Below are positions 1,871-38,968 of a DNA stretch of 42,840 bases, piece after piece. How positions within the stretch are numbered: the first letter of the stretch is position 1; every line of letters starts with the position of its first letter. Made by a program: the position numbers and the translations under genes. The DNA is taken from positions 1 to 42,840 of the forward strand of contig CACFGR010000002.1 in assembly GCA_902565955.1 (NCBI GenBank). Direction: 5' to 3'. The notes under the pieces are model-generated. The model saw nothing but the letters and a program-made list of their open reading frames with translations. It was not told the DNA's origin and ran no database searches. Source of the stretch: an uncultured Pelagibacteraceae bacterium. Its GTDB lineage: Bacteria > Pseudomonadota > Alphaproteobacteria > Pelagibacterales > AG-422-B15.

Positions 1871-3232
1871 ATGGACCTCACTAAAGATAATATTTCAACT
1901 TTAATAAGGCAAATTGCAATACCTTCAAGTATTGGTACTCTTTTTCAAACGCTCTATAACATCGTTGATGTTAAGTTTGCCGGATTAATATCGCCAGATG
2001 CTATCACTGCTATTGCAAAATCATTTCCAATTTACTTCATTATTATTGGATTTACTGCAGGTTTATCCATAGGAGTTACGGCGCTAATTTCAAACGCTCT
2101 TGGTAAAAATGACGAGAAAAAAGCATCGCTTCTTCTTGCGCAGGCTATTCTGACTAGTTTAATTATATCTGTTTTAGTTTCGTTGGTTGGAATTTACGGA
2201 ACAGAACCTATTCTTATATTTTTGAAAACAAATCCTGAAATTATATTCTATGCAAAAGACTATATGAATATAATTTTCATTGGTGCCTCGCTATTTTTCT
2301 TACAATTAACTATTAATGCATTTCTAGTTTCTAAGGGGGATACAAAGTCTCTAAGAAATGTTTTAATTATTTCATTCTTTCTTAATCTAGTTTTGAATCC
2401 AACGTTTATTTATGGGTTTTATTTTGTTCCTGCAATGGGAGTGAAAGGTATAGCCTTAGCAACATTATGTTCACAGCTGTTTGGACTAATTTATATTGTT
2501 ATGAAGGTAAATAAGACAAATTTAAAAAAATTTCTTTATCCACAATGCTTTGTTCCCAAATACGATTTACAAAAGGAAATTTTAACTCAAGCAATTCCCG
2601 CTACAATTTCAATGATGTTTATTGGTTTAGGAGTTTTTGTCTTATTGTTTTACGTTTCAACATACGGAGATTATTCAGCGGGCGGGTACGGTGCAGCGAT
2701 CCGCTTTGAACAACTTTTTCTATTACCTGTATTAGGCTTAAATGCATCTACTCTCGCTTTAGTTGGTCAAAATTTTGGCGCTATGAATTTTAGCAGAATT
2801 CATGAGACTTATAATAGGTCAATTTTTTATGGAACTTTCTTTATGGCTATATGTGGACTGTTTATTTTCTTTTTATCAGACTACATCATGTTCTTTTTTA
2901 GCGATAATAAAGAAATTATTTATTATGGATCAACTTACCTGAAGATCGCTGCATTTGCCGGACCTTGCTATCCGATTTTCTTTATATCGTCAGCATTACT
3001 TCAAGGACTTAAAAAACCAAATTATCAAATGATAATTAATTTAATGAGAATGGTGATATTGCCAGTTTGCGGACTTTCCGTTGCAGTTCTCTATTTAAAA
3101 GTTGAATTTATTACAATGTTTATAGTTATATTGATAATTAACTATGTATTTGCAGCTGCAGTCTACAAATTTTCGACTTACCAAATAAGCTATATACAAA
3201 AAAACTATAATCCAAATTTTGATGCCGTTTGA
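1871..3232 (+). CDS. MATE family efflux transporter
   Basis: 453 aa polytopic membrane protein. The N-terminus (IAIPSSIGTLFQTLYNIVDVKFAG) is typical of MATE/NorM-like proteins. Confidence 0.85.
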   Translation: MDLTKDNISTLIRQIAIPSSIGTLFQTLYNIVDVKFAGLISPDAITAIAKSFPIYFIIIGFTAGLSIGVTALISNALGKNDEKKASLLLAQAILTSLIISVLVSLVGIYGTEPILIFLKTNPEIIFYAKDYMNIIFIGASLFFLQLTINAFLVSKGDTKSLRNVLIISFFLNLVLNPTFIYGFYFVPAMGVKGIALATLCSQLFGLIYIVMKVNKTNLKKFLYPQCFVPKYDLQKEILTQAIPATISMMFIGLGVFVLLFYVSTYGDYSAGGYGAAIRFEQLFLLPVLGLNASTLALVGQNFGAMNFSRIHETYNRSIFYGTFFMAICGLFIFFLSDYIMFFFSDNKEIIYYGSTYLKIAAFAGPCYPIFFISSALLQGLKKPNYQMIINLMRMVILPVCGLSVAVLYLKVEFITMFIVILIINYVFAAAVYKFSTYQISYIQKNYNPNFDAV

Positions 3233-9242: not shown

Positions 9243-9970
9243 GAAATTATGAATTGGATGACAATAAATATTACAAAGCAAGATTAGGATTGATCGTTCT
9301 TCAGAGCGATGAAACTATCGAGCAAGAATTCAGAACCATTCTTGATCAAAGTGTAACAATCAATCACTCACGCATTTACTGCGACAATATTGTAAGTAAT
9401 GAAAATCTTGGACTTATGGAAAAAGAATTGCCAGCAGCATCTGCGTTATTACCTGATATCCGGTATGATAGTATTGGATATGCTTGTACATCAGGTGCAA
9501 CAGTTATTGGCTCTGATAAAATTGAAAAACTTATAAATAAAAAACATAAATCGGCATTTGTAACTGATCCAATAAGAGCTGTAAAAAAAGCTATGAGTAC
9601 GTTAGGCTGTAGAAAAATAAATTTTGTATCACCTTATCAAGAGTCGGTGACAAAATCTTTATGTGATCATTTGCATGCTAATGATTTTATAATTCAAAAC
9701 CAAATTTCTTTTAATGAATCCGATGATAGGAATGTTGCAAGGATCTCAGATAAAGACAGCCTAGAAGCTATAATAGAAGTTGGTAAACAGGATTGTGAAG
9801 CAGTATTTATTTCATGTACTAACCTTAAAACATTTAAAATTATCAATAAAGCAGAGAAAATATTAGATAAACCAGTGATCTCGTCTAATCAGGCGATTAG
9901 CTGGCAAATGCTAAGAGAAGCTGGAATTGATAGTCCGGCTGGCCCAGGAATTCTTTTTTCAAAACATTAG
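9239..9970 (+). CDS. Asp/Glu/hydantoin racemase superfamily protein, maleate cis-trans isomerase-like
   Basis: 243 aa. Two catalytic-type cysteines sit in GYACTSG and FISCTNL contexts. Its start overlaps the upstream stop (ATGA). Confidence 0.75.
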   Translation: MRNYELDDNKYYKARLGLIVLQSDETIEQEFRTILDQSVTINHSRIYCDNIVSNENLGLMEKELPAASALLPDIRYDSIGYACTSGATVIGSDKIEKLINKKHKSAFVTDPIRAVKKAMSTLGCRKINFVSPYQESVTKSLCDHLHANDFIIQNQISFNESDDRNVARISDKDSLEAIIEVGKQDCEAVFISCTNLKTFKIINKAEKILDKPVISSNQAISWQMLREAGIDSPAGPGILFSKH

Positions 9971-10593
9971 CTAAGAGCTAACCAGATACCAACGCCCACC
10001 ATTAAGAAACCTGCTAACCCGTTAATAAGTCTAATATTATTTTGTTTTTTTAACATAATGCCTAAAGCTTGACCTCCAGTTGCGTAAATCATAAGTGAAA
10101 TAAACTCAATTATAAGAATAATTATTACAAGCGCTGACATTTGCGGGATTAAATTTGCTTCGTAATTAATAAATGCAGGGACCATTGCAATAAAAAATGC
10201 CCAACCTTTTGGATTCGCAACAGCAGTTATAAAACCTTGCATTGCTAACTTAAAAAAAGTTATTTCAAATGAGTGTGAACCATCCAAATTTAATGCTAGT
10301 GATCCTCTTGAGTTAATCATCTGATAACCAACAAACATCAAATAAAGACCTCCTCCATATTTGAAAACGGCAAATGCAATTGGAAAAGATGAGATGACCG
10401 CTCCACCTCCTACCACCGCTGTACCTGCCACAATTAAAACTCCTATTAATTCTCCAACCATCATTTTCATTGTATTTTTTACACCTATTGTAATTCCCAT
10501 TGTTAAAGCAAGTGTCATGCATAAACCTGGAGTAATGGATATTATAAAAAAAACTGGTATGAAAAAGTAGAGTAATGAGAAATCAAAGATCAT
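9967..10593 (-). CDS. LysE/RhtB family amino-acid exporter
   Basis: 208 aa with six TM segments. It has the N-terminal ITPG motif and the central NPKGWAFF motif typical of the family. Confidence 0.85.
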   Translation of the reverse strand: MIFDFSLLYFFIPVFFIISITPGLCMTLALTMGITIGVKNTMKMMVGELIGVLIVAGTAVVGGGAVISSFPIAFAVFKYGGGLYLMFVGYQMINSRGSLALNLDGSHSFEITFFKLAMQGFITAVANPKGWAFFIAMVPAFINYEANLIPQMSALVIIILIIEFISLMIYATGGQALGIMLKKQNNIRLINGLAGFLMVGVGIWLALS

Positions 10594-10735
10594 AAGAACG
10601 AGCAGTAGTGTTTAAGAGGGCAAAAAAAACGGGGCGCAACACAAACCCCTAAAGGTCTCCATTCCGCCCCGAAACTCGGCCTCCCGCCGACAAACTCCCC
10701 GAAGGGCTTTCGTTCTTTGTTCGTCCGATGAAAAA
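10594..10735 (-). promoter_or_regulatory. structured GC-rich 5' leader of the LysE-family gene; candidate riboswitch or attenuator, class unassigned
   Basis: G+C is 50 of 80 nt (62%, hand count) in 10631-10710, against about 30% around it. The leader contains a cUUCGg hairpin, a UCGGC/GCCGA hairpin, a terminator stem with U8, and an 8-nt complement to the bases just before the AUG. Confidence 0.6.
10622..10671 (-). terminator. intrinsic terminator inside the LysE leader
   Basis: On the minus-strand RNA, CGGGGCG (10671-10665) pairs with CGCCCCG (10636-10630). The 28-nt loop contains a small inner hairpin, and U8 follows directly (10629-10622). Confidence 0.7.
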
Positions 10736-10744
10736 ATATTAGCA
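10736..10744 (-). promoter_or_regulatory. candidate extended -10 promoter element (TGCTAATAT) for the LysE leader
   Basis: The minus strand reads TGC-TAATAT, with TTTAAA 17 nt upstream. This would place the transcription start near 10729, at the 5' edge of the GC-rich element. Such hexamers are common in AT-rich sequence. Confidence 0.3.
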
Positions 10745-10775
10745 AAAAGGAAAAATAATTTAAATAAGTTTTATT

Positions 10776-10806
10776 AAAAAAACACCTTATACGATGTGGA
10801 TAAGTG
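10776..10806 (-). terminator. weak candidate terminator for the DUF2061 gene
   Basis: The minus-strand RNA forms CACUUAU / 9-nt loop / AUAAGGUG (7 bp, one bulge) followed by U7. The stem is AT-rich and weak. Confidence 0.3.
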
Positions 10807-10811
10807 GATAA
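10796..10811. repeat. tandem direct repeat (GTGGATAA)x2, forming two DnaA-box-like 9-mers
   Basis: TGTGGATAA (10795-10803) matches the DnaA box consensus perfectly on the complementary strand. AGTGGATAA (10803-10811) differs at one position. Confidence 0.5.
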
Positions 10812-10855
10812 ATAGTTTTTACTATAAGAATCAATATTTAATAAAAAATACTTAA

Positions 10856-11080
10856 TTATGATTCCATACCCCAAGATAAAGAATTCCATATTCTTTCATG
10901 AAAATAATAAATAGTTACCTTTGTAATAACTTCCAATGCAGCAATTAAACCGGCAGTTTCAAGAACTGAAAAATCTGATTTTAAAATTACTAAGTAACTG
11001 ATTAAGAATGTATCTGCTGTTGCCGTTACTCTCCAGGTAAGAGCCTTTACTAATGATCTTTTTTTTGAACTGTTTGGCAC
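10856..11080 (-). CDS. DUF2061 family small membrane protein
   Basis: 74 aa with KALTWRV...TF and a C-terminal YYFHERIW, as remembered for DUF2061. Confidence 0.7.
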   Translation of the reverse strand: MPNSSKKRSLVKALTWRVTATADTFLISYLVILKSDFSVLETAGLIAALEVITKVTIYYFHERIWNSLSWGMES

Positions 11081-13640: not shown

Positions 13641-13730
13641 TGGCGGAAAGGATGGGATTCGAACCCACGATACGGTCACCCGCATACACGCTTTCCAAGC
13701 GTGCGCCTTCAACCACTCGGCCACCTTTCC
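13641..13730 (-). tRNA. tRNA-Ser (anticodon GGA), CCA encoded
   Basis: Hand-folded cloverleaf: acceptor GGAAAGG/CCTTTCC, anticodon stem CACGC/GCGTG with loop TTGGAAA, a long variable arm and a GGTTCGAATCC T-loop. Confidence 0.9.
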
Positions 13731-38892: not shown

Positions 38893-38968
38893 TGGTGGAG
38901 CTAGTCGGACTCGAACCGACCACCTCGTCACTGCCAGCGACGCGCTCTCCCAGATGAGCTATAGCCCC
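38893..38968 (-). tRNA. tRNA-Ala (anticodon GGC), CCA encoded
   Basis: Hand-folded: acceptor GGGGCTA with the G3:U70 identity pair, anticodon loop CTGGCAG and T-loop GGTTCGAGTCC. Confidence 0.9.

Follow-up and report, generated by a model that had tools for sequence, protein, structure and literature searches.

A conserved leader upstream of a LysE/RhtB-family exporter gene in SAR11 bacteria: a candidate transcription attenuator

What is the short GC-rich stretch that precedes a LysE/RhtB-family exporter gene in an uncultured Pelagibacteraceae bacterium of the SAR11 group, and does it regulate that gene? The stretch lies on the minus strand of contig CACFGR010000002.1 (assembly GCA_902565955.1), of which positions 1 to 42,840 were analyzed and are referred to here as the window. 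An earlier note, made from the letters of this DNA alone, had proposed an unassigned riboswitch or attenuator at 10594-10735, and the minus-strand sequence of 10594-10745 is exactly as quoted there. Its count of 50 G+C among the 80 nt of 10631-10710 was confirmed as well. The window averages 33% G+C and its top 80-nt value (51/80) falls in this same stretch, a range comparable to that of its two tRNA genes, which reach 48 and 50 G+C per 80 nt. Comparison with related loci suggests, with moderate confidence, that the element is the 5' leader of the exporter mRNA and a cis-acting conditional transcription attenuator, and as such an orphan riboswitch-like candidate.

Anatomy, conservation and gene linkage of the leader

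The exporter gene (9967..10593, minus strand, start ATG at 10593) encodes a protein of 208 aa that matches Pfam PF01810 at 1.6e-20; the nearest NCBIfam models are RhtB, LeuE and RhtC, with every score below the cut-off. The end of the gene meets a convergent EutA-like gene, and the LysE gene would therefore be the only gene governed by the leader. Two genes of the same orientation are found upstream, one for a 74-aa DUF2061 protein and one for an MFS transporter.

The leader RNA comprises 108 nt from the predicted transcription start to the end of the U tract (10622..10729, minus strand). Its minimum free energy (MFE) fold holds all three structures that had previously been folded by hand, namely the two hairpins P1 and P2 and a 7-bp stem followed by U8. 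P1 (10691..10712, minus strand), which is also part of the RNAalifold consensus, has CGAA/UUUG as its lower stem, followed by an internal 2x2 AG/AG loop and then by CCC/GGG, a stem that carries a UUCG tetraloop (CCC-UUCG-GGG, 10706-10697). P2 (UCGGC-GGGAG-GCCGA, 10676..10690, minus strand) competes with an alternative helix, P0, in which the 3' strand of P2, CCGA, pairs with the 5'-terminal UCGG (10725-10728). The third structure is a 42-nt hairpin (10630..10671, minus strand) with the 7-bp CGGGGCG/CGCCCCG base, a variable middle stem and an apical GAGACCU...GGG, of which the base and the apical part are invariant. It runs into the U8 tract (10622..10629, minus strand), which is U7-U9 in every copy. 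Such a stable GC-rich hairpin followed by a U run has the form of an intrinsic terminator, and it ends 28 nt before the ATG. The spacer to the start codon (10594..10621, minus strand) has a lineage-specific sequence and a length of 28-37 nt among copies; in the window its 28 nt contain no Shine-Dalgarno-like sequence and are too short for a separate promoter.

The MFE of the 108-nt leader is -43.0 kcal/mol (z = -2.2 against dinucleotide shuffles) and that of the terminator hairpin alone is -26.3 kcal/mol, within the span of -22.8 to -27.8 kcal/mol found for the 42-nt hairpin in five folded representatives of the related groups A, B and D described below. A simple terminator scan missed this site because its loop limit was 3-8 nt, whereas the terminator is a 42-nt composite hairpin. 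The opposite strand reaches -30.7 kcal/mol; the sense strand folds better by 12 kcal/mol because of its many G-U pairs, and this asymmetry indicates that the RNA reading belongs to the strand of the downstream gene.

Comparative evidence also points to a promoter upstream of the leader. The extended -10 that had been suggested at 10744-10736 is present as TGC-TAATAT (TGCTAATAT, 10736..10744, minus strand), its hexamer TAATAT lying at 10741-10736 with TG preceding. Relatives carry TAATAT, TATCCT, TAGTAT, TAAAGT, TAGAAT (the form found in the same place in group D), TAACAT, TATTGT or TAAGCT. In all of these variants from groups A, B and D, T1, A2 and T6 are kept and the hexamer stands 6-7 nt before ATCGGA; group A also retains the TGn. 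The predicted -35 hexamer, TTTAAA (10759..10764, minus strand), lies 17 bp upstream of the -10, and an ATTTAA block occupies this position in groups A and B, the two groups compared there. The pair of hexamers, a spacing within 16-18 bp and conserved key positions are those of a sigma-70-type promoter, which a simple promoter scan skipped because 8 of 12 positions match and 9 were required. Judging from the position of the -10, the start, which is predicted and not mapped, would be the A of AUCGGA (10729, minus strand). The UCGGA that follows is invariant in 28 sequences, while a single copy (L081) has U in place of the A.

A scan with the LysE protein, using one genome per species, returned 80 loci, and the element is found upstream of the LysE orthologue in 21 of them, all SAR11. 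With 10 metagenomic copies, this makes 31 further copies in which the proposed layout recurs. The order of a promoter, a structured leader, an intrinsic terminator and the LysE gene is thus as the earlier note had it, and real. In group A, LysE is mostly 97-99% identical to that of the window and the element 92-95% identical; in group B the values are 83-84% and about 80%. Group D (LysE 89% identical) was recognized through a database protein starting MAPRFFC. The full promoter-leader-terminator-LysE unit was found only in these three SAR11 sublineages, A, B and D. The metagenomic copies came from a context-blind scan with a two-block DNA pattern that gave 24 loci, 10 of them true copies of type A or B, each followed by the LysE orthologue, and the other 14 chance matches in GC-rich coding DNA; among these 24 loci no new gene context appeared, and viral contigs scanned for the pattern gave no match. 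A covariance model built from 20 distinct leaders detected no further copy in the window and 71 other loci (439 kb) and no diverged copies upstream of more distant LysE orthologues.

Gene order indicates that the element is linked to the LysE gene and not to DUF2061. In group A the unit follows DUF2061; in group B, which has no DUF2061 gene at this place, it follows the MFS transporter gene directly. The element, the promoter blocks and LysE nevertheless stay together, and the spacer, element and LysE are arranged as in the window.

The leader is also under strong purifying selection, since it is 79-86% identical between the window and group B while the third codon positions of LysE are saturated at 44-46% identity. 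In the same comparison, identity is 83-85% at first codon positions of LysE, 62-65% in the upstream spacer and 46-51% in the 28-37 nt that follow the terminator. The alignment of groups A, B and D has 111 columns, of which 66 are invariant, and the invariant segments include the AUCGGA-type 5' nucleotides, AAAGCC, CGGGGAGUUUGU, CGGGGCG, GAGACCU, GGG and CGCCCCG-U7. A conserved domain of the 5' untranslated region thus sits next to an expression platform, between a conserved promoter and the terminator, as is generally the case in riboswitches. With neutral sites saturated, the invariance of the 7-bp terminator base suggests that its letters are constrained in addition to its pairing. In a plain terminator the stem could covary freely, and the fixed letters of this stem therefore suggest that they have more than one partner or are recognized directly.

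By eye, the P1 module AAAG-CCC-UUCG-GGG-AG-UUUGU (10691-10712) resembles the terminator apex GAGA-CCU-UUAG-GGG-UUUGU (10640-10660), both on the minus strand, and in most of group B both modules read CCUUUCGGGG. This likeness suggests an internal duplication. Three U-rich-GGGG runs opposite one CCCCG can likewise be made out by eye in the leader.

Known RNA families and published elements

Does the leader belong to a family that is already known? At gathering thresholds, Rfam finds only two tRNAs in the window, and Rfam 15 gives no match at this level for the element, including yybP-ykoY, guanidine I-IV, glycine, SAM-II/V, fluoride, ZTP, glutamine and thiS. The region 10500-10900, searched with Rfam 15 at E<=10, yields only rli62 (13.8 bits, cut-off 83) and suhB (12.1 bits, cut-off 41), both noise. 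Several other identities were rejected. Neither ARAGORN nor the Rfam tRNA model sees a cloverleaf in the element, so it is no tRNA or tmRNA; a phage attachment site is opposed by the lack of any phage match, which together with the lack of copies in unrelated contexts among the metagenome hits, the window and 71 other loci also speaks against a repeat or mobile element resembling a miniature inverted-repeat transposable element (MITE) or a repetitive extragenic palindrome (REP). A G-quadruplex was dismissed as only three G-runs are conserved.

A faint resemblance to yybP-ykoY had been pointed out, in that GGGGAGU..GUCGG and AGACCUUU recall the conserved 5' and 3' segments of this family (RF00080) as seen in the L. 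lactis sequence. The class controls exporters, including MntP, a member of the LysE superfamily, and it is an ON switch that acts through a terminator. The resemblance is not supported. There is no Rfam match to RF00080 even at E<=10, the four-helix architecture cannot fit into the ~30 nt between the two strings, and the gene here is of RhtB type (PF01810) and not of MntP type. The yybP-ykoY-like P1 helix that the analogy needs (AAAG:CUUU) was rejected, as it shows uncompensated changes from U to A in L004 and from U to C in L118.

Other known systems share parts of the design. The guanidine-IV riboswitch (mepA motif), its Gd4v variant and the HMP-PP (thiS) riboswitch likewise have a short 5' hairpin followed by a Rho-independent terminator with a highly conserved upper part. 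Guanidine-IV controls efflux genes. It is an ON switch (PMC9788692), and the idea of a terminator-embedded aptamer comes from a published account (PMC6478431). However, no covariance model of these classes matches the present leader at E<=10. They also use a loop-loop pseudoknot, whereas the P1 loop (UUCG) was found to have no complementarity to the apical loop of the terminator, which reads UUAG, UUCG or UCAG and thus varies between lineages. The classical leader-peptide attenuators of the trp, thr and leu operons similarly place a promoter-proximal leader with an intrinsic terminator before an amino-acid-related gene, but they differ from the present element in that the latter has no conserved leader open reading frame (ORF). 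In relatives its only AUG is replaced by AUA, ACA or ACG, the frames are disrupted by indels between groups, and a leader-peptide attenuator was rejected.

The architecture of the leader is strikingly similar to that of the rhtB-associated element of Candidatus Pelagibacter ubique HTCC1062, which occupies the intergenic region 1297623-1297755 beside SAR11_1362 (Meyer et al. 2009, PMC2704228). The consensus of that element is GAUAGUCCUU-CUUAGCCAUCUUUAGCUCCCGGUUUU-AGGACUAUC and its hairpin pattern GAUAGUCCU...CUUAGCCAUC...GGUUUU...AGGACUAUC with a U tract; about half of the examples are then followed by U6-9 and the start codon, and covariation is weak (PMC2704228). Both elements are found in SAR11 immediately upstream of a LysE/RhtB-type translocator gene, and both have a TGnTAnnnT-like -10 a few nt before a long bulged hairpin with a conserved loop. 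Despite this likeness there is no sequence similarity between them, and the rhtB intergenic region has 28% GC and a single hairpin, while the present element has 56% GC and an extra 58-nt 5' domain. The gene neighborhood differs too, so that the gene of the rhtB element is probably a different paralogue. The rhtB consensus pattern, searched with up to 3 mismatches in the window, was absent there and from 113 loci that were compared. Based on this sequence comparison, the present leader is not the element of Meyer et al. As for other reports, LysE, RhtB and DUF2061 are not mentioned in the Stav 2019 paper on HIMB5 and its supplements, nor are SAR11, RhtB, exporter or efflux in the main texts of the 26-genome and 50-genome GC-IGR (intergenic region) papers. 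The leader matches no known RNA family and is undescribed; the kind of element is well known.

Proposed attenuation of the exporter gene and alternative explanations

How might such a leader act on the exporter gene? As a conditional attenuator, it would be transcribed from a sigma-70-type promoter (-35 TTTAAA, 17-bp spacer, TGn-TAATAT) starting at about A10729, and its first 58 nt would fold into a small 5' domain made of P1, with its UUCG loop, and either P2 or P0. The very stable 42-nt hairpin and U8 would then act as an intrinsic terminator, at which most transcripts would stop by default, giving an RNA of about 108 nt. The exporter would be made only upon read-through by the polymerase, since the 28-nt spacer leaves no room for another promoter, and some signal would shift the balance towards read-through. 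Because the gene encodes an exporter, an ON switch would be most likely. Among the forms of attenuation we tentatively favor one in which a small molecule binds directly to the leader, a putative orphan riboswitch, although taken by itself this is less likely than not; an RNA-binding protein or other trans factor is only slightly less probable.

Several results weigh against conditional attenuation, and most of them concern the fold. RNAalifold returns three helices, P0 (5' UCGG with CCGA), P1 and a 16-bp terminator, and 98.8% of cells are paired among 20 distinct sequences, yet 18 of the 28 pairs never vary. Covariation, which the earlier note had looked to as a test, is nearly absent. A single pair, which belongs to the terminator's middle stem, shows double changes (columns 69-94; A-U, U-A and G-C), and the 5' domain finds no covariation support in this alignment. 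When all column pairs were searched, only splits following the A/B phylogeny emerged, along with one 17-94 coincidence that stands alone and is not part of a longer helix. P2 shows a compensatory change of its closing pair, which is C-G in group A and A-U in group B, with one nucleotide added on each strand, but A-C mismatches break it in five of eight distinct group-B leaders; P0, which uses the same 3' strand, can still form in 21 of 22 distinct leaders, all but L018. In P1, C26 is replaced by U in seven sequences with retention of a U-G pair, and G19 is replaced by C without compensation in L018 and L118. The consensus fold is compatible with these sequence data, its demonstration being confined to the terminator.

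The switching step meets similar objections. The GCCCU:GGGGC pairing that had been proposed as an antiterminator forms around P2 and would hold the 5' arm of the terminator. In group A it is energetically plausible (-19.1 versus -18.5 kcal/mol for the P1 fold), but in most of group B it is much weaker (about -9 versus -16 kcal/mol, ~7 worse). It competes in group A only, no conserved antiterminator was found, and a pair of mutually exclusive conformations, terminator and antiterminator, is not conserved across members. The perfect 8-nt complement of AAGAACGA (10717-10710) and UCGUUCUU (10601-10594) just before the AUG does exist as described, but is confined to group A and has uncompensated changes even there. 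Its duplex energy is reached by ~12% of shuffled spacers and within-group pairings are no better than across-group ones. As a 5'-3' closing helix it was rejected, being no better than chance and not conserved across lineages. A final objection is the narrow distribution, as sister exporters of 81-90% identity have a truncated or different leader or none. Such lability would not be expected if the leader sensed a universally essential (core) metabolite, and it fits a lineage-specific regulator.

Low covariation combined with strong sequence conservation is also typical of small RNAs, and the element could be an independent gene for a small RNA, equipped with a promoter and a terminator of its own and yielding a trans-acting RNA of ~108 nt while the exporter is expressed by incidental read-through. 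The promoter-like -35/-10 and the strong terminator indeed delimit a discrete 108-nt transcript, in which the long invariant single-stranded stretches (AUCGGA, GAGUUUGU and GAGACC) could serve as seeds. We nevertheless consider this unlikely, as the element always stands 28-37 nt upstream of LysE without any change of orientation, which holds for three lineages and for 10 of 10 copies from the unbiased metagenome scan, as there is no room for a separate LysE promoter, and as lineages without the full element have remodeled the same leader and kept no free-standing RNA gene elsewhere. Such a role would be compatible with regulation in cis, since terminated riboswitch transcripts can act in trans too. 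An unconditional terminator or insulator, which would end the MFS/DUF2061 transcripts and keep the exporter low and fixed through leaky read-through with nothing being sensed, is improbable to a similar degree. It would explain why a pattern scan saw no terminator-like site after the upstream genes, why the terminator is the only part of the leader with any covariation, why no conserved antiterminator was found and why the leader is easily lost in sister lineages. However, a conserved promoter lies upstream, so that the leader would stop its own transcripts, and a plain terminator has no need of the 58 nt that precede the hairpin or of the apical nucleotides, which are conserved about as well as first codon positions although neutral sites are saturated. 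Nor would it account for a stem whose sequence is invariant and not simply kept paired.

Finally, the stretch may be read at the level of DNA, either as a set of repressor operators downstream of the promoter, formed by three TTYGGGG-type repeats, or as a mobile GC-rich remnant in which AAGAACGA/TCGTTCTT would be the terminal inverted repeats of a miniature element. Three G-runs after T-rich sequence, spaced 25-30 nt apart, the 8-nt inverted repeat flanking the element in group A, the position as a GC-rich island within an AT-rich genome and the patchy occurrence across lineages could all be taken in this sense. Against them stand the single copy per locus, in all cases beside LysE, with no other in the window and 71 other loci (439 kb), the absence of the flanking inverted repeat from groups B and D, and the different repeats of group D, UUGCGGGG and UUCAGGGG. 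As the strand asymmetry in folding, caused by G-U pairs, further points to RNA, we regard a DNA-level site or mobile remnant as highly improbable.

Sister lineages and other features of the locus

LysE orthologues of 81-90% identity elsewhere have no leader (L105, L111/L022 and L020/L117), a shorter leader (L116 and L106) or a different GC-rich structured leader, termed group C (L036, L107-110, L114 and L115). Shorter and group-C leaders keep AUCGG...GAGUUUGUUGCGCC...UUUUUAUG without the segment between both UUUGU repeats. In a rough neighbor-joining protein tree, A+D and B bracket the leaderless, short and group-C lineages, which makes the full element look ancestral, with several later truncations or losses. 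The shorter leaders resemble the outcome of a deletion between both UUUGU repeats. In L020 (about 2780-3003) and L117 (242-1552), a LysE orthologue of 82% identity lies 6 nt after an alternative oxidase (PF01786) gene, with which it is presumably co-transcribed.

The group-C leader, located at about 2840-3000 in L036 and about 560-719 in L107, precedes LysE genes of 87-90% identity. It contains a UGUCAG...CUGACA hairpin enclosing GGAUG/CAUCC, three YUCCCC runs and an ACUUCCC:GGGAAGU long-range pairing (CUC:GAG in L036). It has no terminator, and in its 3' part it shows homology to the ends of the A/B/D leader. Perhaps it is a second, translation-level regulatory leader for the LysE gene.

Taken together, these features could describe a new SAR11-restricted riboswitch class, a possibility that we put forward as speculative. 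Its small aptamer would consist of two similar modules, CC(C/U)-UUNG-GGG with purine-rich and UUUGU flanks, one of which would lie inside the upper terminator. The metabolite removed by the RhtB-type exporter would be sensed and would turn the exporter on by antitermination, and in sister lineages the ancestral leader would have been remodeled into the group-C leader. The locus would then be a rare natural example of turnover in a riboswitch-like sensor. More generally, a conserved leader gating an amino-acid-type exporter would point to a metabolite that the cells must dispose of, and it bears on which compounds SAR11 releases into seawater. If the ligand is bound directly, a rare riboswitch class would be added, and with the rhtB element of HTCC1062 and the group-C leader, LysE-family exporters of SAR11 would be repeatedly under RNA-leader control. 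If the leader is just a leaky terminator, it would be an ordinary feature.

The control region may extend further upstream. A pattern search revealed a tandem TTATCCAC-TTATCCACA motif resembling DnaA boxes (10795..10811, minus strand), ~30 nt upstream of the predicted -35, and 14 nt at this site, TCCACTTATCCACA, do not vary in groups A and B, in contrast to a surrounding spacer of 62-65% identity. The motif may be a transcription-factor site for the control of LysE. A replication origin was rejected here, as such boxes are not enriched in the window (16 found versus 14 expected).

The closest genomes to the window are Pelagibacteraceae single-cell genomes, and the rest of the window holds ordinary SAR11 housekeeping and transport genes. 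The stop codons of LysE and of the convergent EutA-like gene (Asp/Glu racemase family) overlap by 4 bases at 9967-9970, so that no room is left for a terminator between both genes. One of the two tRNAs (13644-13730, minus strand; Rfam 60.7 bits) is 87 nt in length with a long variable arm and lies directly 3' of an ACC-deaminase-like gene; the other is at 38896-38968. In one group-A single-cell genome (L017, 3001-3625), LysE has a one-base frameshift that gives a 93-aa product, although the leader before it is intact; the gene is a recent pseudogene, or else the assembly is in error.

A 99-aa ORF (10590-10889, minus strand) crosses the spacer and the leader, and public gene calls join all or part of it to LysE. 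This is the case in two over-extended database proteins, P0001 (307 aa) and P0002 (226 aa), the second of which begins MAPRFFC, a translation of the terminator arm and U tract. The ORF and both proteins are annotation artefacts of over-extended gene calls, and that of P0002 proved useful in that it led to group D.

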